Below the pieces are notes generated by a model. It searched no databases. It saw nothing but the letters and a program-made list of their open reading frames with translations, and was not told where the DNA came from. The position numbers and the translations under genes are program-made. From a virus, in the UHGV virus genome UHGV-0248180: a DNA stretch of 37,455 nucleotides; one strand, given 5' to 3'. Of the stretch, positions 1,284 through 37,374 are shown piece after piece. How positions within the stretch are numbered: position 1 is the first letter of the stretch; each line of letters opens with the position of its first letter.

Positions 1284-1289
1284 TGATAA

Positions 1290-1311
1290 GGGGCTTCGGC
1301 CCCTATTACTT
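1290..1311 (+). terminator. UUCG-tetraloop hairpin (GGGGC-TTCG-GCCCC) followed by T-rich tract
   Basis: Stem-loop read directly from sequence. Confidence 0.6.
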
Positions 1312-3132: not shown

Positions 3133-4101
<969 letters not shown>

Positions 4102-4135: not shown

Positions 4136-4172
4136 ATTCACAGTTACTAATTAAAATATTTAAAGGAAACAC

Positions 4173-4490
4173 ATGAAAACGTATAAAGAATTTATTGCAG
4201 AATCTGCTGCAGGACAACGTGTAGAAGGCGGTTATATCTGGATTGAACAAGTTGAGCCGCCAAGTCGCACTTCTACAGGTAAATGGAAAATCACTGTTGA
4301 TGGTCCTGGTGGTAAACGTAGGACTCTTAAAGAAATTAACGGGTACTATGAAGAAGCTCTTTCTGACGCGGGTACTTATATGATGCAAATCATGATTAAA
4401 AACCCAGAAAATCGTTTTGCGGCTAGAGTTTTCCGCCGTATTGGAAATAAGCTTTATGATGCATATTCTAAAAACTTCCCTAAAGAATAA
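4173..4490 (+). CDS. Capsid-targeted internal protein (105 aa) with N-terminal CTS MKTYKEFIAE
   Basis: N-terminal capsid targeting sequence typical of T-even internal proteins; located in the ip locus next to e. Confidence 0.75.
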   Translation: MKTYKEFIAESAAGQRVEGGYIWIEQVEPPSRTSTGKWKITVDGPGGKRRTLKEINGYYEEALSDAGTYMMQIMIKNPENRFAARVFRRIGNKLYDAYSKNFPKE

Positions 4491-4506
4491 AAATTAAAGG
4501 ATACAC

Positions 4507-4980
4507 ATGAAAACATATCAAGAATTTATTACTGAAGCAGCTATTAATTCTCAAATTATTGCTGAATCTTTTACTGATCTTTTGAAATTTAAAAAAGGAC
4601 AGAAAATCACTGCTGTATTGGATGACGGTACAGAAGTTGAGATGGATGTACAAGGATATAATTATGCAGTAGATGGAAAACTGTATAATAAATCTCATGC
4701 TAAATTTGATTCATTTGACGACTTTGTTAATACAGTTGAAGATGAAAAAACTCGTAGATCCATTGCAACGGGTGATGCTAAGGTTCTTATGGCACATGGC
4801 CATGAACGCATTCGCGCTAAGCAGAATAAAATGGGTGAAGATAATTTTGCATTAGTTGGTTATCAATCTGGTAAACAAACTTATGGTTATCAACGTACTG
4901 CTACCATGTATAACAAAAATGGTAAAATTGCCTTTGTGAATAGTAAAGGTTCTATTCAGTACGTCAAATCATTCAAATAA
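4507..4980 (+). CDS. Capsid-targeted internal protein (157 aa) with N-terminal CTS MKTYQEFITE
   Basis: CTS motif; leader and RBS nearly identical to the preceding ip gene. Confidence 0.75.
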   Translation: MKTYQEFITEAAINSQIIAESFTDLLKFKKGQKITAVLDDGTEVEMDVQGYNYAVDGKLYNKSHAKFDSFDDFVNTVEDEKTRRSIATGDAKVLMAHGHERIRAKQNKMGEDNFALVGYQSGKQTYGYQRTATMYNKNGKIAFVNSKGSIQYVKSFK

Positions 4981-11467: not shown

Positions 11468-11490
11468 AGTCTCCTTCGGGAGACTTTTTT
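11468..11490 (+). terminator. Rho-independent terminator (AGTCTCC-TTCG-GGAGACT + T6)
   Basis: 7-bp stem, UUCG loop, T tract. Confidence 0.8.
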
Positions 11491-11500
11491 CATTTTACCG

Positions 11501-11530
11501 GTTTACTTTCCGTCTGAGCCGTGGTACTAT
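11501..11530 (+). promoter_or_regulatory. T4 early promoter (GTTTAC-N18-TGgTACTAT)
   Basis: GTTTAC 11501-11506; TGg TACTAT 11522-11530. Confidence 0.65.
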
Positions 11531-13026: not shown

Positions 13027-13548
13027 ATGTATATTTCAAGTGAAAGTGGTTTAATTCGTGTTGAATTTAAAAATGATATTTTCCTTATTCAAGGAGATGA
13101 TATTATTAAAATGAGTTATGACGAAATCAAGAAAATTTGTCATACTCTTGAAAGCCGTGGAAACGTAAATGCTGTTATTGATATTGGTGATTTATGGGTA
13201 ACGCTTTATAAAGTATCCGAAGGATTTAACATTGAAGATGAAAATAACATTTTAGCTATTGATAAAAGAACTGATTTGTTTGATGTATTAAAAGCCTATG
13301 AACAGTCAAACGGTGGAAGAAAAGCTGCATTGATTTATCAAAAACCGCATTCATGTGGAACTGCTTCAATCATTTCAAATATTGAAGACGAATCTGATAC
13401 TTATATGTGTGTTTTAAAAGCTGGTGGTGACCGTCATCCGGATTTTATTTCTATTCGTCAAAACAATGGAGAAATTTCATTATCAAAATCAGAAGCTGAA
13501 GCCATGATTAAGTATTTAACAACCGTTACGCCTTCAATGAAAGGATAA
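13027..13548 (+). CDS. hypothetical protein (173 aa), paralog of 12475 ORF
   Basis: ORF; shared C-terminal motif. Confidence 0.6.
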   Translation: MYISSESGLIRVEFKNDIFLIQGDDIIKMSYDEIKKICHTLESRGNVNAVIDIGDLWVTLYKVSEGFNIEDENNILAIDKRTDLFDVLKAYEQSNGGRKAALIYQKPHSCGTASIISNIEDESDTYMCVLKAGGDRHPDFISIRQNNGEISLSKSEAEAMIKYLTTVTPSMKG

Positions 13549-13550
13549 TT

Positions 13551-13997
13551 ATGATTATTAATGAAAACTCTTGGCACGTTCGTATGCATGATTTCTTTTA
13601 CTGGCAGCGTCCGAATTCTTTGTGTAAATATTTCTGGAAAATGGCGTGGACGTTCTTAGTTATCGGTGTTATTTGCATATCGGGGCTATTAGGTAGTTGG
13701 GTGGTAGGACAAGCCATTTTAAGCCAATTTGGCGTTACAGGATTCTGGCTTCTACACGCAGGCGGAACCTTATTTGGTGTACTGATATTTGCTACGATTG
13801 TCATTATTGCAGTAGGTATAGCATATATTATAGCTAAGATTTCAGGTTTATGGGAAGGAGTCAGGTATGATAGAGAGTGGAAGCGTCAACAAGACGAAGA
13901 AAATGGTATTGAACATCCTAAGAGTGTAATCGTTGAATACCTTAAAGCTAGTAAATCTAAAATCTGCCCTATGATAGAATTTAAGGATGTTAAATGA
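13551..13997 (+). CDS. hypothetical integral membrane protein (148 aa)
   Basis: ORF; long hydrophobic segments (WTFLVIGVICISGLLGSWVV... GTLFGVLIFATIVIIAVGIAYII). Confidence 0.6.
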   Translation: MIINENSWHVRMHDFFYWQRPNSLCKYFWKMAWTFLVIGVICISGLLGSWVVGQAILSQFGVTGFWLLHAGGTLFGVLIFATIVIIAVGIAYIIAKISGLWEGVRYDREWKRQQDEENGIEHPKSVIVEYLKASKSKICPMIEFKDVK

Positions 13998-15004: not shown

Positions 15005-15006
15005 TA

Positions 15007-15031
15007 GGGAGCCTTCGGGCTCCCTTTTTTT
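15007..15031 (+). terminator. Rho-independent terminator (GGGAGCC-TTCG-GGCTCCC + T7)
   Basis: Perfect 7-bp GC-rich stem, UUCG loop, T tract. Confidence 0.85.
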
Positions 15032-15055
15032 ATTTCAAAAATTTTTCACAAAACT

Positions 15056-15085
15056 GTTTACAAGCATAAAGCTTTATGGTACTAT
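15056..15085 (+). promoter_or_regulatory. T4 early promoter (GTTTAC-N18-TGgTACTAT) with conserved leader ACAACTATCAACT
   Basis: GTTTAC 15056-15061; TGg TACTAT 15077-15085. Confidence 0.65.
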
Positions 15086-23623: not shown

Positions 23624-23648
23624 ACCCTTATCTATTTAAGGTAAGGGT
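23624..23648 (+). promoter_or_regulatory. Hairpin (ACCCTTA / TAAGGGT) overlapping the gene 49 ribosome binding site
   Basis: 7-bp inverted repeat; 3' arm contains AAGGG just upstream of ATG 23655. Confidence 0.5.
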
Positions 23649-24128: not shown

Positions 24129-25942
24129 CAATTGAAAAAGAAATTGAAGGATTGATTCATAAAACTAATAAAGACCTTTTAAACGAGAATGCTAATAAAG
24201 ATTCTCGTGTTTTTCCAACTCAACGGGACCTTATGGCTGGTATTGTGTCTAAACACATTGCCAAAAATATGGTCCCGTCTTTTATTATGAAAGCGCATGA
24301 AAGCGGAATTATTCATTTCCATGATATTGATTATTCCCCTGCTCTTCCATTTACTAATTGTTGTTTAGTAGATTTAAAAGGAATGCTTGAAAACGGATTT
24401 AAGCTTGGTAATGCACAGATTGAAACTCCTAAATCAATTGGCGTTGCTACTGCAATTATGGCGCAAATTACTGCGCAAGTTGCTTCCCATCAATACGGCG
24501 GAACGACTTTTGCGAATGTAGATAAAGTACTTTCTCCTTATGTTAAACGCACCTATGCAAAACATATTGAGGATGCAGAAAAATGGCAAATCGCTGATGC
24601 GTTGAATTATGCTCAATCTAAAACAGAAAAAGACGTATACGATGCATTTCAAGCTTATGAATATGAAGTAAACACTCTCTTTAGTTCAAACGGACAAACG
24701 CCTTTTGTAACAATTACATTTGGTACGGGAACTGACTGGACTGAACGAATGATTCAGAAAGCAATTCTGAAAAATCGTATTAAAGGTCTTGGTCGTGATG
24801 GGATAACTCCTATTTTCCCTAAGCTTGTTATGTTCGTTGAAGAAGGCGTTAATCTTTATAAAGACGATCCGAATTACGACATTAAGCAACTTGCTCTAGA
24901 GTGTGCAAGCAAAAGGATGTATCCTGATATTATTTCAGCTAAGAACAATAAAGCTATCACTGGTTCATCTGTTCCTGTTTCTCCAATGGGTTGCCGTAGT
25001 TTCTTGAGCGTATGGAAAGATTCGACTGGTAATGAAATTCTTGATGGACGTAATAATCTTGGTGTTGTAACACTGAATCTTCCTCGCATCGCGTTAGATT
25101 CTTATATTGGAACACAGTTCAATGAACAGAAATTTGCTGAATTATTCAATGAACGAATGGATTTATGTTTTGAAGCTTTGATGTGTAGAATTAGTTCCTT
25201 AAAAGGAGTTAAAGCTACTGTTGCTCCTATTCTTTACCAAGAAGGTGCATTCGGGGTTCGTCTTAAACCTGATGACGACATAATTGAGTTATTTAAAAAC
25301 GGTAGAAGTTCAGTGTCTTTAGGATACATTGGTATTCACGAATTGAATATTCTTGTCGGTCGTGATATTGGACGAGAAATTTTAACTAAAATGAATGCTC
25401 ATCTTAAACAGTGGACTGAAAGAACTGGATTTGCTTTTAGCTTGTATTCTACTCCCGCTGAAAACCTTTGTTATCGCTTCTGTAAACTTGATACTGAAAA
25501 ATATGGAAGTGTAAAAGATGTTACTGATAAAGGCTGGTACACTAATAGTTTCCATGTTTCAGTAGAAGAAAATATTACTCCGTTTGAAAAGATTTCTCGC
25601 GAAGCCCCATATCATTTCATTGCGACAGGTGGTCACATTTCTTATGTTGAACTTCCTGATATGAAAAATAACTTAAAAGGTCTTGAGGCCGTGTGGGATT
25701 ATGCTGCACAGCATTTAGATTATTTTGGTGTTAATATGCCAGTAGATAAGTGTTTTACATGCGGAAGTACCCATGAAATGACTCCTACTGAAAACGGATT
25801 TGTTTGTTCTATTTGTGGAGAAACTGATCCTAAAAAGATGAACACAATAAGAAGAACATGTGGTTATTTGGGAAATCCGAACGAGCGCGGATTTAATCTT
25901 GGCAAAAATAAAGAAATCATGCATAGGGTTAAACACCAATGA
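24125..25942 (+). CDS. nrdD: Anaerobic ribonucleoside-triphosphate reductase NrdD (class III), 605 aa, uninterrupted
   Basis: C-terminal glycyl-radical motif RRTCGYLG and zinc ribbon CFTCGS..CSICG. Confidence 0.95.
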   Translation: MTIEKEIEGLIHKTNKDLLNENANKDSRVFPTQRDLMAGIVSKHIAKNMVPSFIMKAHESGIIHFHDIDYSPALPFTNCCLVDLKGMLENGFKLGNAQIETPKSIGVATAIMAQITAQVASHQYGGTTFANVDKVLSPYVKRTYAKHIEDAEKWQIADALNYAQSKTEKDVYDAFQAYEYEVNTLFSSNGQTPFVTITFGTGTDWTERMIQKAILKNRIKGLGRDGITPIFPKLVMFVEEGVNLYKDDPNYDIKQLALECASKRMYPDIISAKNNKAITGSSVPVSPMGCRSFLSVWKDSTGNEILDGRNNLGVVTLNLPRIALDSYIGTQFNEQKFAELFNERMDLCFEALMCRISSLKGVKATVAPILYQEGAFGVRLKPDDDIIELFKNGRSSVSLGYIGIHELNILVGRDIGREILTKMNAHLKQWTERTGFAFSLYSTPAENLCYRFCKLDTEKYGSVKDVTDKGWYTNSFHVSVEENITPFEKISREAPYHFIATGGHISYVELPDMKNNLKGLEAVWDYAAQHLDYFGVNMPVDKCFTCGSTHEMTPTENGFVCSICGETDPKKMNTIRRTCGYLGNPNERGFNLGKNKEIMHRVKHQ

Positions 25943-26409
25943 ATTACGATAGATTTTATCCCTGCGATTTTGTGAATGGCCCTGGATGCAGGGTCGTTCT
26001 TTTCGTTACAGGTTGTTTGCATAAATGTGAAGGGTGTTATAATAAATCAACATGGAATGCTAGAAATGGTATTCCATTCACTGGTGAAACACTAGAACAA
26101 TTAATTGAATGTTTGAATAATGATTATATAGAAGGATTAACTATAACTGGAGGAGACCCTCTCTATCCTGATAACCGAGATGTTATTCATTGCATCGTTC
26201 AAACAGTAAAAAATCTTTATCCCAATAAAAGCATTTGGTTGTGGACAGGATATAAGTTTGAAGATATTAAACAACTAGAAATGCTTAAATATGTTGATGT
26301 TATTATTGATGGGAAGTATGAGAAAAATCTTCCGACTAAAAAGCTGTGGCGAGGATCAGATAATCAGCGACTTTGGTCAAATACCGATGGGGTGTGGAAA
26401 CATGATTAA
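25939..26409 (+). CDS. nrdG: Anaerobic RNR activating enzyme NrdG (radical SAM), 156 aa
   Basis: Radical-SAM cluster motif CLHKCEGC; ATGA overlap with nrdD. Confidence 0.93.
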   Translation: MNYDRFYPCDFVNGPGCRVVLFVTGCLHKCEGCYNKSTWNARNGIPFTGETLEQLIECLNNDYIEGLTITGGDPLYPDNRDVIHCIVQTVKNLYPNKSIWLWTGYKFEDIKQLEMLKYVDVIIDGKYEKNLPTKKLWRGSDNQRLWSNTDGVWKHD

Positions 26410-27051: not shown

Positions 27052-27075
27052 GGGCCCTCTGGGTCCTTCTTTCTC
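27052..27075 (+). terminator. Candidate terminator hairpin (GGGCC-CTCTG-GGTCC) + T-rich
   Basis: Imperfect stem with one G-U pair in RNA, T-rich tail. Confidence 0.4.
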
Positions 27076-27146: not shown

Positions 27147-27176
27147 GTTTACAACGAGCTCAAACTGTGGTATTAT
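27147..27176 (+). promoter_or_regulatory. T4 early-type promoter (GTTTAC-N18-TGgTATTAT)
   Basis: GTTTAC 27147-27152; TGg TATTAT 27168-27176. Confidence 0.5.
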
Positions 27177-27814: not shown

Positions 27815-28015
27815 ATGAATCCTGAATCTAAATTATCGCAGCGAATTGCTGAAGAACGCGCCAAATTTTTCCAGAACATGAAACACAATGGTATTGAGGA
27901 TGAAGTTTTTCTAAATTGGTTCTGGAATAATAAGTATGCAGCATGTGAAGGAGCTTTGTCATTGTCAGTCGCAATGATGTACGAAGGCTGGAAGGGTGCC
28001 AAAAAGTTTAGCTAA
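27815..28015 (+). CDS. hypothetical protein (66 aa)
   Basis: ORF; followed by terminator. Confidence 0.45.
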   Translation: MNPESKLSQRIAEERAKFFQNMKHNGIEDEVFLNWFWNNKYAACEGALSLSVAMMYEGWKGAKKFS

Positions 28016-28017
28016 GG

Positions 28018-28037
28018 GCTTCGGCCCTTTTTGGATA
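28018..28037 (+). terminator. Rho-independent terminator (AAGGGC-TTCG-GCCCTT + T tract)
   Basis: UUCG hairpin and T5. Confidence 0.7.
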
Positions 28038-29717: not shown

Positions 29718-30035
29718 ATGACTGATAAACCCGAAATTAATGATGAAGTGGAAAAGCTTATTTCTTCTATTGAAGAAAAGAACCGTCTTGAAGCAGAAAG
29801 AAAAGCAAATAAGTTATTGTCTAAAAACAAACGCGAACTGAACCGTCTTTATAAACACGCTCAGATTGCAGCTGAAAACAATAATTTTGCTCAATACGAA
29901 TATGCTATCAAGAAAAGTCGGGATATTCTAAAACAGCCATATAACGATGAACTCATTAGTATTCTTTGGAAGACTACTAGATCGCAGATTGAGGATATGA
30001 TTGATGCTTACACGCGTAAAATTCAAGCGTCTTAA
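29718..30035 (+). CDS. hypothetical protein (105 aa)
   Basis: ORF. Confidence 0.5.
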   Translation: MTDKPEINDEVEKLISSIEEKNRLEAERKANKLLSKNKRELNRLYKHAQIAAENNNFAQYEYAIKKSRDILKQPYNDELISILWKTTRSQIEDMIDAYTRKIQAS

Positions 30036-30210: not shown

Positions 30211-30384
30211 ATGAACGCCCAGACTTGTGAAATAGATTATAATAAAATTCGTTCCTCTAAAGTAGAAATGATGAGACGCTTTAAAGAATCTCATGATAAA
30301 GCTAAAGCAGAAGGAACTATAACATATAAGCGTATTAAATTTAGAAGCTCTAATGAGCCTCTGTATGGTGTATTATGCGGATAG
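30211..30384 (+). CDS. hypothetical small protein (57 aa)
   Basis: ORF below track cutoff; weak RBS. Confidence 0.3.
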   Translation: MNAQTCEIDYNKIRSSKVEMMRRFKESHDKAKAEGTITYKRIKFRSSNEPLYGVLCG

Positions 30385-30399
30385 GAGCTTCGGCTCCTA
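30382..30399 (+). terminator. UUCG-tetraloop hairpin (TAGGAGC-TTCG-GCTCCTA), weak T tract
   Basis: Stem-loop read from sequence. Confidence 0.45.
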
Positions 30400-30402
30400 T
30401 AT

Positions 30403-30426
30403 TGCTTTACAAATTTTTGGTAAAAT
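30403..30426 (+). promoter_or_regulatory. Candidate MotA-dependent middle promoter (MotA box TGCTTTA, 11 nt, TAAAAT)
   Basis: TGCTTTA 30403-30409; -10-like TAAAAT 30421-30426; upstream of a-gt. Confidence 0.5.
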
Positions 30427-30450
30427 AAACCAAAACAATGAGGATATTAA

Positions 30451-31653
30451 ATGAAAGTATGCATTTTTATGGCTCGAGGTCTTGAAGGTTGCGGTGTAAC
30501 TAAATTTTCTCTTGAGCAACGTGATTGGTTTATTAAAAATGGTCATGAAGTGACTTTGGTTTATGCTAAAGATAAATCATTTACTCGTAATTGCGCGCAT
30601 GATTATAAATCATTTTCAATTCCGGTTTTATTGGCAAAAGAATACGATAAAACACTTAAGCTGGTAAATGATTGTGATATTCTAATTATCAATTCAGTTC
30701 CTGCTACTTCGGTTGAAGAAGACACTATTAATAACTATAAAAAAATTATTGATAACATTAAACCTTCTGTTCGTGTTGTAGTTTATCAGCATGACCATTC
30801 TTCTCTTTCTTTGCGTCGAAATTTGGGATTAGAAGAAACTGTTCGTCGAGCTGATGTTATTTTTAGTCATTCTGATAATGGTGATTTTAATAAAGTTCTG
30901 ATGAAAGAATGGTATCCAGAAACTGTTTCTCTGTTTGATGATATTGAAGAAGCACCGACAGTATATAACTTTCAGCCTCCTATGGATATTGCGAAGGTTC
31001 GGTCAACTTACTGGAAAGATGTTTCTGAAATTAACATGAATATCAACCGTTGGATTGGTCGTACGACTACATGGAAAGGTTTTTATCAGATGTTTGATTT
31101 TCACGAAAAACATCTTAAACCTGCAGGACTAAGTACTATTATGGAAGGTCTGGAACGTTCTCCAGCGTTCATTCCTATTAAAGAAAAAGGAATTCCATAC
31201 GAGTATTATCGTCTTCATCAAGTAGACCAAATTAAAATTGCTCCTAATTTGCCAACACAAATTCTTGACCGTTATGTAAATAGCGAAATGCTTGAACGCA
31301 TGAGTAAATCCGGTTTTGGTTATCAGCTGAGTAAGTTGGATAAAAAATATCTACAGCGCTCTTTAGAATATACTCATCTCGAGCTTGGTGCATGTGGAAC
31401 AATTCCAGTATTTTGGAAATCTACTGGCGAAAATTTAAAATTCCGTGTTGATAATACTCCTTTGACCTCGCATGATAGCGGTATCATTTGGTTTGATGAA
31501 AATGATATGGAATCAACATTTGAACGTATTAAAGAACTGTCATCTGACCGAACTCTTTATGACCGCGAACGTGAAAAAGCTTATGAATTTTTGTATCAGC
31601 ATCAAGATTCAAGCTTCTGCTTTAAAGAACAGTTTGACATTATTACAAAATAA
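30451..31653 (+). CDS. a-gt: DNA alpha-glucosyltransferase (400 aa)
   Basis: Translation matches T4 alpha-glucosyltransferase from memory (400 aa). Confidence 0.93.
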   Translation: MKVCIFMARGLEGCGVTKFSLEQRDWFIKNGHEVTLVYAKDKSFTRNCAHDYKSFSIPVLLAKEYDKTLKLVNDCDILIINSVPATSVEEDTINNYKKIIDNIKPSVRVVVYQHDHSSLSLRRNLGLEETVRRADVIFSHSDNGDFNKVLMKEWYPETVSLFDDIEEAPTVYNFQPPMDIAKVRSTYWKDVSEINMNINRWIGRTTTWKGFYQMFDFHEKHLKPAGLSTIMEGLERSPAFIPIKEKGIPYEYYRLHQVDQIKIAPNLPTQILDRYVNSEMLERMSKSGFGYQLSKLDKKYLQRSLEYTHLELGACGTIPVFWKSTGENLKFRVDNTPLTSHDSGIIWFDENDMESTFERIKELSSDRTLYDREREKAYEFLYQHQDSSFCFKEQFDIITK

Positions 31654-31669
31654 AGGGCTTCGGCCCTTT
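31652..31669 (+). terminator. UUCG-tetraloop hairpin (AAAGGGC-TTCG-GCCCTTT)
   Basis: Same 18-mer recurs at 36362-36379. Confidence 0.5.
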
Positions 31670-31692
31670 AGCTTTATACGGAGTTTGATATA

Positions 31693-31833
31693 ATGATATT
31701 TCTTGGATATGTGATACTTTTTCTTGCATTTTATCTATTCACTAGAGCATGTTGGATTGGGTTCTTTATCACTCCAGATGGATTTATTTCATTAATTTTA
31801 TTTTGCATTTCAATGACGGTTCTTGATATATGA
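31693..31833 (+). CDS. hypothetical small membrane protein (46 aa)
   Basis: ORF below track cutoff; hydrophobic; ATGA overlap with gene 47 start. Confidence 0.4.
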   Translation: MIFLGYVILFLAFYLFTRACWIGFFITPDGFISLILFCISMTVLDI

Positions 31834-35673: not shown

Positions 35674-36360
35674 ATGAAACTGTCTAAAGATACTACTGCT
35701 CTGCTTAAAAATTTCGCTACTATTAACTCTGGTATTATGCTTAAATCCGGTCAATTTATTATGACTCGCGCAGTTAATGGTACAACTTATGCGGAAGCAA
35801 ATATTTCTGACGTTATTGATTTTGATGTAGCAATTTACGATTTGAACGGTTTTCTCGGTATTCTGTCTCTAGTTAATGATGATGCAGAAATTTCCCAGTC
35901 AGAAGATGGAAATATTAAAATTGCTGATGCTCGTTCAACAATTTTTTGGCCAGCAGCCGATCCGAGTACAGTAGTTGCTCCTAATAAACCAATTCCATTC
36001 CCGGTAGCATCTGTTGTTACTGAAATTAAAGCTGAAGACCTTCAACAACTGTTACGTGTATCTCGTGGTCTGCAAATTGATACAATTGCTATCACAGTAA
36101 AAGAAGGTAAAATCGTAATTAACGGTTTTAATAAAGTAGAAGATTCTGCTCTGACCCGTGTTAAATATTCTTTGACTCTTGGTGATTATGATGGTGAAAA
36201 TACATTTAATTTCATTATCAATATGGCAAATATGAAAATGCAACCAGGAAATTATAAACTTCTGCTCTGGGCAAAAGGTAAACAAGGTGCTGCTAAATTT
36301 GAAGGTGAACACGCGAATTATGTAGTAGCTCTTGAAGCTGATTCTACCCACGATTTTTAA
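35674..36360 (+). CDS. 45: gp45 sliding clamp (228 aa)
   Basis: Translation matches T4 gp45 from memory. Confidence 0.97.
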   Translation: MKLSKDTTALLKNFATINSGIMLKSGQFIMTRAVNGTTYAEANISDVIDFDVAIYDLNGFLGILSLVNDDAEISQSEDGNIKIADARSTIFWPAADPSTVVAPNKPIPFPVASVVTEIKAEDLQQLLRVSRGLQIDTIAITVKEGKIVINGFNKVEDSALTRVKYSLTLGDYDGENTFNFIINMANMKMQPGNYKLLLWAKGKQGAAKFEGEHANYVVALEADSTHDF

Positions 36361-36361
36361 T

Positions 36362-36379
36362 AAAGGGCTTCGGCCCTTT
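36362..36379 (+). terminator. UUCG-tetraloop hairpin (AAAGGGC-TTCG-GCCCTTT), weak T tract; possibly an mRNA stability element
   Basis: Identical to hairpin at 31652-31669. Confidence 0.45.
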
Positions 36380-36414
36380 AATTGTAAATTTAATGAAATT
36401 TGAATGAGGAAATT

Positions 36415-37374
36415 ATGATTACTGTAAATGAAAAAGAACACATTCTTGAACAGAAATATCGTCCATCTACTATCGATGAATGTATTCTTCCCGCCTTTGA
36501 TAAAGAAACCTTTAAATCTATTACAAGTAAAGGTAAGATTCCACATATTATTCTTCATTCTCCTTCTCCAGGAACAGGTAAAACAACTGTAGCAAAAGCA
36601 TTATGTCATGACGTAAATGCTGATATGATGTTCGTGAATGGGTCAGATTGTAAAATTGATTTCGTTCGTGGTCCTTTGACTAATTTTGCCAGTGCAGCTT
36701 CATTTGATGGTCGTCAAAAAGTAATCGTTATTGATGAATTTGACCGTTCAGGGTTAGCAGAGTCTCAGCGACATCTTCGTTCCTTTATGGAAGCTTATAG
36801 TTCAAACTGTAGTATTATTATTACTGCTAACAATATTGATGGTATTATTAAACCACTTCAGTCACGCTGCCGAGTTATTACATTCGGTCAACCGACCGAT
36901 GAAGATAAAATTGAAATGATGAAGCAGATGATTCGTCGATTGACTGAAATCTGCAAGCGTGAAGGAATTGCTATAGCTGATATGAAAGTTGTAGCAGCTT
37001 TGGTTAAAAAGAATTTTCCTGATTTTCGTAAAACTATTGGCGAGCTCGATAGTTATTCATCTAAAGGTGTTTTGGATGCTGGTATTTTATCACTGGTTAC
37101 TAACGATCGTGGTGCTATTGATGATGTTCTTGAGTCTCTCAAAAATAAAGATGTTAAACAACTCAGAGCTTTAGCACCAAAATATGCAGCCGATTATTCG
37201 TGGTTCGTGGGTAAACTTGCCGAAGAAATCTATTCACGTGTAACTCCACAGAGTATTATTCGTATGTACGAAATTGTCGGCGAAAATAATCAGTATCATG
37301 GTATTGCAGCTAACACTGAATTACATTTAGCTTATCTTTTCATTCAATTAGCATGTGAAATGCAGTGGAAGTGA
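36415..37374 (+). CDS. 44: gp44 clamp-loader ATPase subunit (319 aa)
   Basis: Walker A SPSPGTGKTT, SRC motif; matches T4 gp44; GAGGA RBS before ATG 36415 (track start 36400 is TTG). Confidence 0.97.
   Translation: MITVNEKEHILEQKYRPSTIDECILPAFDKETFKSITSKGKIPHIILHSPSPGTGKTTVAKALCHDVNADMMFVNGSDCKIDFVRGPLTNFASAASFDGRQKVIVIDEFDRSGLAESQRHLRSFMEAYSSNCSIIITANNIDGIIKPLQSRCRVITFGQPTDEDKIEMMKQMIRRLTEICKREGIAIADMKVVAALVKKNFPDFRKTIGELDSYSSKGVLDAGILSLVTNDRGAIDDVLESLKNKDVKQLRALAPKYAADYSWFVGKLAEEIYSRVTPQSIIRMYEIVGENNQYHGIAANTELHLAYLFIQLACEMQWK

Follow-up and report, generated by a model that had tools for sequence, protein, structure and literature searches.

Sense-strand C(UUCG)G hairpins at the ends of cistrons in a T4-like phage genome

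UUCG loops are common in the terminators of E. coli, and the hairpins of bacteriophage T4 are the original example behind the definition of the UUCG tetraloop. Intercistronic hairpins that stabilise 3' ends are also known from polycistronic mRNAs, as in the REP sequences of malE-malF and in the Rhodobacter puf operon. The CUUCGG hairpins of T4 intercistronic regions go back to Tuerk et al. (1988; PNAS 85:1364, PMID 2449689), whose work is cited in PMC8948821 and PMC7165471; marked heat stability and a block to reverse transcriptase also belong to the definition of this class. Two Virology Journal reviews of T4 do not discuss these hairpins. For neither T4 nor this phage did the searchable literature yield data on transcript 3' ends, half-lives or termination, nor did it yield anything relevant from T4 Term-seq, nanopore or 3'-end mapping. 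Stem-loops also form part of two composite elements. In the PeSLs of T4-like phages, a stem-loop lies just upstream of an early promoter, a Shine-Dalgarno sequence and an ATG; the early promoter consensus of the PST/T4 PeSLs is TTTACW-N17-TAYWAT (Comeau et al. 2014, PMC4122927), and in reporter assays the stem-loops of PeSLs bring about termination (Arbiol et al. 2010, PMC2839356). In the PmSLs, a Mot box and a -10 element come after the stem-loop. Their only described source is vibriophage nt-1, and none has been reported from T-even phages (Comeau et al. 2014, PMC4122927).

The window analysed here is the whole 37,455-nt stretch of virus genome UHGV-0248180. Between positions 30000 and 37455 it shares 95-99% identity with more than 500 Tequatrovirus genomes, Shigella phage Sf23 being the best match (97.9%). 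The window as a whole is colinear with T4 read in reverse complement, between about 68.0 kb and 30.8 kb, its first 2.6 kb corresponding to the T4 region with e.8 to e.3. Judged by its sequence, it is a T4-like Tequatrovirus. The gene order on the + strand runs from the e.6 region through regB, tk, rI, the nrdC cluster, nrdD/G, 55 and a-gt, then through 47, 46, rpbA and 45 into 44. Owing to the colinearity with T4, the + strand is the one that encodes the early and middle genes. Every gene in the window lies on one strand, and the G+C content is 34%.

Seven hairpins in this window share with those of Tuerk et al. (1988) the C(UUCG)G loop and closing pair, the short G+C-rich stems, the sense strand, the intergenic position and the phage group. 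Loop, stem and sense intercistronic site, the testable defining features of the T4-type class, were found at all seven, and nothing essential sets them apart from the T4 set; the hairpin between genes 45 and 44 (45|44) is perfectly paired here and equal to the a-gt hairpin, whereas the T4 copy is weaker. The first-pass annotation had noted that such hairpins were first characterised in T4 intercistronic regions, and the comparison is apt, T4 being a relative with an orthologue of all seven. The phenomenon is already known (Tuerk et al. 1988), from the same phage group and from orthologous sites, and with its T4 source named from the outset it carries little weight as a discovery. We consider it probable that the seven belong to the C(UUCG)G hairpins known from the mRNA of T4-type phages, stable 3'-proximal structures at cistron ends that act as RNA in three settings. 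The data show that the hairpins exist, which rules their strand and position follow, that their structure is under selection, and which promoters accompany them; what is said below of termination efficiency and of RNA stabilisation is read from the sequence.

Sense-strand hairpins at cistron ends

Scanning for TTCG with complementary arms on either side, in a Watson-Crick stem of at least 6 bp, returned seven hairpins on the + strand and none on the - strand. All are perfect C(UUCG)G hairpins with G+C-rich stems of 6-8 bp:

1289..1304, + strand: hairpin AGGGGC[TTCG]GCCCCT, 6 bp, between e.6 (stop 1281-1283) and e.5 (ATG 1325); -12.6 kcal/mol; T4 orthologue at 69306
11468..11485, + strand: hairpin AGTCTCC[TTCG]GGAGACT, 7 bp, 4 nt after the rI.-1 stop; -10.8 kcal/mol; T4 orthologue at 58814
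15006..15025, + strand: hairpin AGGGAGCC[TTCG]GGCTCCCT, 8 bp, 1 nt after the nrdC.11 stop; -16.2 kcal/mol; T4 orthologue at 55433
28014..28029, + strand: hairpin AAGGGC[TTCG]GCCCTT, 6 bp, overlapping the 55.3 stop TAA (28013-28015); -9.3 kcal/mol; T4 orthologue at 40838
30381..30400, + strand: hairpin ATAGGAGC[TTCG]GCTCCTAT, 8 bp, containing the a-gt.2 stop TAG (30382-30384); -16.0 kcal/mol; T4 orthologue at 38734
31651..31670, + strand: hairpin TAAAGGGC[TTCG]GCCCTTTA, 8 bp, its first 3 bases being the a-gt stop TAA (31651-31653); -11.8 kcal/mol; T4 orthologue at 36626, identical
36361..36380, + strand: hairpin TAAAGGGC[TTCG]GCCCTTTA, 8 bp, adjoining the gene 45 stop (36358-36360) on its 3' side; -11.8 kcal/mol; T4 orthologue weaker (GAGGGC/GCCTTT)

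The seven UUCG hairpins listed by the first-pass annotation are thereby all accounted for, each 0-4 nt from where it had been placed. The start of each hairpin is 0-5 nt away from a stop codon, in every case that of a gene for which T4 has a homologue, and at 28014, 30381 and 31651 the stop codon lies within or overlaps the stem. Chance origin is ruled out by the hairpin and hexamer shuffles: 300 dinucleotide-preserving shuffles, scanned on both strands, gave a mean of 0.12 TTCG hairpins (maximum 2), and the hexamer CTTCGG has 18 occurrences where 7.0 are expected, a count that none of 100 shuffles reached. Seven of its ten sense-strand copies sit in hairpins, and none of the eight antisense copies does. 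No G+C-rich tetraloop hairpins other than these seven occur in the window; another 24 tetraloop palindromes have stems of 6 bp or more, but these are mainly A+T-rich and their number is near the shuffle expectation.

Folding energies, which the first-pass annotation had proposed as a check, are predicted at -9.3 to -16.2 kcal/mol for the seven RNAs, with minimum-free-energy structures that match the stems, versus -2.3 +/- 2.2 kcal/mol for the background of 30-nt windows on the same strand. Relative to shuffles of their own composition, the z-scores are modest at some sites (-1.05 at 28014). The window has no Rfam match at gathering thresholds. Describing the family as near-identical turns out to suit the AAGGGC/GCCCTT subset only. 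The reported identity of the 18-mers at 31652 and 36362 in fact extends to a 22-mer, AATAAAGGGCTTCGGCCCTTTA, at 31649-31670 and 36359-36380. Beyond the hairpin edges the likeness ends and the flanks differ; a dispersed repeat or mobile element was rejected on this ground, only the early-promoter parts recurring elsewhere.

Since all genes of the window lie on one strand, the window alone cannot separate a preference for the sense strand from a bias between the DNA strands. The complete T4 genome was assembled and rescanned for G+C-rich UUCG hairpins. It contains about 21, all in the sense of the local genes and none antisense. Three of them closely follow the late genes 18, 23 and 37, on the + strand like these genes, and the remainder are on the - strand, after or within - strand genes. 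The hairpin count published for T4 by the Gold laboratory agrees with this result (PMC7165471). As the sense-strand rule holds in both directions of T4 transcription, the element is selected as RNA; on the opposite strand, each UUCG hairpin would bear a CGAA loop.

Tails and promoters downstream of the hairpins

Clear T-runs come after two hairpins (11468 and 15006) and a shorter one after the hairpin at 28014, and the remaining four hairpins have none, in line with the earlier division into hairpins with terminator-like T tracts and hairpins without; among relatives, the nrdC.11 T-run is kept and 45|44 never has one. With full stems, the tail scores at 1289, 30381, 31651 and 36361 are 2.4-3.3, compared with a background of 2.27 +/- 0.65. 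By the sequence definition, two hairpins, perhaps three with 28014, would count as intrinsic terminators. The proposed location at operon boundaries fits four of the seven, two standing before early promoters and two abutting MotA-dependent middle promoters, but not the three that lie between genes without a nearby promoter. We propose one general purpose for all, that of forming a very stable 3'-proximal structure where a cistron ends, in three settings.

In the first setting (11468 and 15006), the hairpin carries a U-run and an early promoter begins 16-31 nt further on:

11486..11496, + strand: U-rich tail TTTTTCATTTT, putative rI.-1 terminator; tail score 5.1-5.5
11502..11530, + strand: early promoter TTTACT-N17-TACTAT upstream of mobD.5; repeat family D5
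15026..15035, + strand: U-run TTTTTTATTT, putative strong nrdC.11 terminator; tail score 5.6-6.0
15057..15085, + strand: early promoter TTTACA-N17-TACTAT upstream of nrdC.10; repeat family D1

Both tails have 6-7 T in their first 8 nt and both hairpins are flagged as terminator-like by a consensus scan. Both promoters fit the PST/T4 PeSL consensus, and a Shine-Dalgarno sequence and an ATG follow them, so that the order of elements is that of the PeSLs; the PeSL promoter is present at these two sites and at none of the other five, and the three hairpins inside operons, having no promoter, are not PeSLs. The G+C-rich hairpin followed by U's is likewise that of the Rho-independent terminators of E. 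coli and its phages, although the U-run that defines this class is missing at four of the seven hairpins. We assign the 11468 and 15006 hairpins with good confidence to intrinsic terminators in PeSL-type cassettes, each of which would close one early transcription unit before the next starts. A terminator label appears safe for these two sites and perhaps for 28014. Immediately before nrdC.11, the mobD region is variable.

The second setting (30381 and 31651) couples the hairpin to a middle promoter:

30404..30426, + strand: MotA-box middle promoter GCTTTA-N11-TAAAAT, 3 nt after the hairpin; equivalent to T4 PmobB (Pa-gt.1)
31671..31694, + strand: MotA-box middle promoter GCTTTA-N12-TATAAT, adjoining the hairpin directly; equivalent to T4 P47

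In T4, the mapped start sites of PmobB and P47 are 38682 and 36576 (Hinton 2010, Table 1, PMC2988021), 33 nt and 31 nt beyond the ends of the T4 hairpins at 38715 and 36607, respectively, and the same arrangement of hairpin and middle promoter is found at T4 P39 (5349). As in the PmSLs of vibriophage nt-1, a stem-loop is followed at both sites by a Mot box with a TGCTT core and a correctly spaced -10 element. The gene a-gt is thus flanked on both sides by a hairpin and MotA-promoter unit. This coupling in a T-even phage, with a-gt between two units, is a small addition of the present analysis, and for annotation the two hairpins can now be tied to P47 and PmobB, middle promoters already known. 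The tails are only moderately U-rich (score 2.7-3.3 at 30381). Most likely, the hairpin would attenuate read-through from upstream and/or cap the 3' end of the upstream message, the new middle transcript beginning about 30 nt downstream of it. In T4, mobB is inserted just after the first hairpin and promoter unit, and it is absent from this phage; in phages without a-gt, the a-gt.2 hairpin and promoter stand directly before 47.1/47.

The third setting (1289, 28014 and 36361) comprises hairpins between co-transcribed genes, with no promoter near any of them. The 1289 hairpin is without a U-run (tail score 2.6-3.3), and a GGAG Shine-Dalgarno sequence (1312-1315) lies 8 nt downstream of it. At 28014, the short U-run CCCUUUUUGG gives an intermediate score of 3.7-4.7. 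The 36361 hairpin, which also has no U-run, stands 34 nt before the gene 44 ATG (36415); a single G-to-A change relative to the common variant (that of L003-L007) makes its pairing perfect and its sequence identical to the a-gt hairpin. The 45|44 spacer of this phage has no identical copy among 50,697 phage records, in which its best match is 93% over 141 nt. In this setting, most RNA polymerase would be expected to read through.

Conservation and covariation in relatives

Loci with relatives of gp45, NrdC.11, e.6 and gp47 were taken from viral contigs. Every relative fetched, down to 53% gp45 identity, has a stable hairpin after the gene 45 stop codon; the stems differ, and the loops are mostly UUCG, with UACG, UUUG and GAAA also occurring. 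In an ungapped alignment of 11 distinct 45|44 sequences, seven of the eight stem pairs have changed on both sides, and 88.6% of the cells are paired versus 65.7% in shuffles, a comparison in which the segments were centred on the best hairpin of each spacer and pairing is to that extent favoured, such G+C-rich hairpins being very rare by chance. The covariation score was reached by none of 500 shuffles, and pairing is lost in slid registers. These compensatory substitutions provide formal covariation support for the 45|44 hairpin and are a second small addition made here.

Among nrdC.11 relatives with the same gene order, the stem is AAAAGGCC, AAGGAACC, AAGGACCC or AAGGGCC, and the loop is always UUCG. 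The T-run is kept except in the AAGGGCC variant (L035), whose tail is TAGGGG. In one natural relative (L026), the 3' arm, the T-run and the -35 element are gone from the nrdC.11 terminator and promoter; the element is dispensable at least in that phage. UACG "hairpins" found downstream of nrdC.11 in some relatives (L039 and L043) were left out, as an inserted ORF apparently contains them. Stems also vary at e.6|e.5, where UUCG, UCCG, UUU and AAA loops occur. Upstream of gene 47, the hairpin and Mot box are kept in phages with 70-74% gp47 identity.

Varied stems with stable loops indicate that structure and stability are conserved rather than the sequence of the stem. The pattern of selection read from the 45|44 sequences recurs at nrdC.11, at e.6|e.5 and upstream of gene 47. 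Nor is the exact loop strictly conserved, the sequence comparison pointing to stability as what is kept and not to a sequence-specific contact. The comparative data lend clean covariation support to hairpins with a candidate in vivo role in attenuation or in the protection of RNA 3' ends.

Termination, 3'-end protection and other readings

The absence of a U-run at four sites bears on the alternative that survives best, according to which all seven hairpins are intrinsic terminators of graded efficiency, those without a U-run being weak attenuators with no role in RNA stability. We regard this as possible but rather doubtful. In its favour, the 45|44 hairpin is annotated as an ARNOLD-predicted terminator in the RefSeq relative NC_054918, the hairpins upstream of gene 47 in relatives often have a true U-run (CUUUUUUGCUUUA), and a simple scan calls the 30381 hairpin terminator-like. 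The stems of the four hairpins also have A-U pairs at their base. If these opened, a 4-bp GGGC/GCCC stem would be left with a UUUA... tail, for which the hand-computed score is about 3.9-4.0 (about 4.0 for the 45|44 tail UUUAAUUGU), and the four could then be ordinary weak terminators only. With full stems, however, tail scores do not rise above the background (2.4-2.7 versus 2.27 +/- 0.65), and the relatives at e.6|e.5 are without a U-run, save one with four U's (L094). Moreover, the 45|44 hairpin is strictly kept and yet is followed by a U-run in no relative, down to 53% gp45 identity. It therefore probably serves as a weak attenuator or else as a 3'-exonuclease barrier, and the combination of a kept hairpin with a consistently absent U-run favours a role that does not need efficient release of the polymerase.

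For the hairpins outside the PeSL-type cassettes, weak attenuation and protection of the upstream 3' end are suggested by the sequence as two readings that do not exclude each other, and a role in 3' stability or processing is plausible. Within operons, the hairpin most likely would combine a weak attenuator with a block to 3'-to-5' exonucleases after endonucleolytic cleavage downstream, PNPase, RNase II and RNase R being the candidate enzymes. The upstream cistron, for example gene 45, would then be more abundant or longer-lived than the downstream 44/62. The REP and puf hairpins offer a parallel, in that a stable hairpin stands between co-transcribed genes whose products are needed unequally (here the gp45 trimer versus gp44/62). 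Unlike those, the hairpins of this phage are much smaller and depend on the tetraloop for their stability, and their stabilising role is a putative one. For annotation, 45|44 and e.6|e.5 should not be labelled terminators on sequence alone.

We tentatively raise a more specific version, which we hold to be somewhat less probable than its opposite. The 45|44 and e.6|e.5 hairpins, which have neither U-run nor promoter and are kept by covariation in T4-like phages as far as 53% protein identity without gaining a U-run, may form a distinct class, not of terminators but of dedicated 3'-exonuclease barriers, or "decay insulators", and the composites that flank a-gt may be T-even "PmSL" cassette borders. 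If so, insulators such as that at 45|44 would fix the stoichiometry of neighbouring cistrons, for instance of the clamp versus the clamp loader, and PmSL borders, for which vibriophage nt-1 is the one source reported to date, would occur in a T-even phage.

A role at the DNA level, in which the PeSL and PmSL composites are recombination substrates that move gene cassettes and the likeness of the hairpins is maintained by recombination or gene conversion, appears unlikely. PeSLs do mediate indels and form mini-circles in RB49/phi1 (PMC2839356), and they are present in PST/T4 (PMC4122927). The surroundings of a-gt are also compatible with cassette movement, this gene lying between two hairpin and MotA-promoter units, with the a-gt.2 unit directly before 47.1/47 where a-gt is missing and mobB just after the first unit in T4 and not in this phage. 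Further points on the same side are the loss in L026, a 51-nt deletion between GCT repeats inside the nrdC.11 element, and the 22-mer common to the a-gt and 45 hairpins. The strict sense orientation in both directions of T4 transcription and the compensatory evolution of the stems argue instead for selection on RNA. In addition, the identity between copies ends at the hairpin edges, about 20 bp being very short for homologous recombination, and the gene pairs that enclose the 45|44 and e.6|e.5 hairpins are conserved, neither promoters nor indels being found around these hairpins.

Least probable is that the hairpins are specific protein-binding or translational control sites, such as the operator of a phage RNA-binding protein or an uncoupler of neighbouring cistrons. 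T4 RNA hairpins do serve as operators (gene 43) or mask start sites (genes e and 49; PMC3014915), and each of the seven is in contact, or almost so, with a stop codon. Against this, the stems differ freely between sites and phages and the loop can be replaced by GAAA, UACG, UCCG or triloops, so that a protein would find no conserved surface to recognise. The next start codon is 20-90 nt downstream of the hairpin, its Shine-Dalgarno sequence uncovered, and RegA sites are unstructured (PMC3014915).

Reading the GCTTCG at the hairpin tops as a MotA box was dropped as a coincidence after inspection by eye; a TAnnnT motif 11-13 nt downstream is present at 36361 only (TAAATT) and is absent from the 45|44 hairpin of T4. 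The strongest local fold of the window, at 25974-25999 (-18.7 kcal/mol), is not a member of the family: it lies inside nrdG, where it encodes FVNGPGCRVVLF, and is therefore a coding coincidence.

Regulatory units around a-gt and mobile genes of T4

A unit made of a UUCG hairpin and a MotA-box promoter lies on either side of a-gt (window 30381-31694), two units in all, while in relatives that lack a-gt (loci L073-L075, L080-L082 and L089) genes 47.1/47 are directly preceded by the hairpin and promoter of a-gt.2. Because two units flank the gene here and the a-gt.2 unit stands before 47.1/47 in its absence, a-gt has the appearance of an inserted cassette bordered by duplicated regulatory units, in the style of the PeSL and PmSL cassettes, which join a stem-loop to an early or a middle promoter.

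The homing-endonuclease gene mobB, located between a-gt.2 and a-gt in T4 (T4 38679-37817), is absent from the window at 30436-30459. The window likewise lacks mobC, as well as the I-TevII-containing intron of nrdD; the alignment with T4 jumps at 24660/24663 and 25939-25959. Two unrelated ORFs occupy the place of the mobD region (13045-13993).

Variation at and around UUCG hairpins

In a relative (L026, IMGVR_UViG_2974787500_000001), a natural deletion of 51 nt between two GCT repeats downstream of nrdC.11 has taken out the UUCG hairpin's 3' arm together with the T-run and the early promoter's -35 element, leaving the 5' arm of the hairpin fused to the -10 region. Judged from this natural loss, the nrdC.11 terminator/promoter is dispensable in that phage.

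Gene 55.3 of the window (27815-28015) encodes 66 aa and terminates at the hairpin, whereas T4 55.3 as annotated (T4 40799-41038) encodes 80 aa and continues through it. Relative to the window, T4 has one additional C ahead of the hairpin and one C fewer in its 3' arm.

In the 45-44 spacer, the sequence 3' of the hairpin (36381-36414) is ATTGTAAATTTAATGAAATT, compared with TAATTTACACTAAAACT in the close relatives inspected (L003-L008). Comparison by eye suggests that the spacer may contain a small inversion, TGTAAATT versus AATTTACA. The 141-nt 45-44 junction had no match above 93% in the collection of 50,697 phage records.

UUCG hairpins of T4 outside the window

The T4 hairpin after regA (T4 29969-29952, locus L001) is located 19-36 nt 5' of position 29933, where the start site of P43 has been mapped, and its DNA thus overlaps the -30 region of this middle promoter. 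The top of this hairpin, GGCTTCGG, includes a GCTTC Mot-box-like core with unusual spacing. The UUCG census also returned a hairpin at T4 2857-2834 (L105), ATGGATAGCC[UUCG]GGCTATCTAT, which overlaps the annotated translational-bypass region of gene 60 and shows that the same loop serves a quite different purpose.

Other hairpins and the internal-protein locus

Two strong hairpins without the UUCG loop, which correspond to the known T4 translational masking structures of early transcripts, are located just 5' of start codons:
3577-3606, before e (lysozyme), pairing across the e Shine-Dalgarno sequence
23624-23648, before gene 49

Just 3' of nrdH, the hairpin GGGCCC[TCT]GGGTCC with a U-rich tail (27052-27066) forms a terminator-like site lacking the UUCG loop; an early-type promoter (27148-27176) follows about 80 nt further on.

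At 4155-4980, two adjacent ORFs (4173-4490, starting MKTYKEFIAE, and 4507-4980, starting MKTYQEFITE) have a 54-nt repeated leader in common and look like internal-protein (IP) genes with a capsid-targeting leader. They stand in place of T4 ipII/ipIII, at the IP locus known to be polymorphic.
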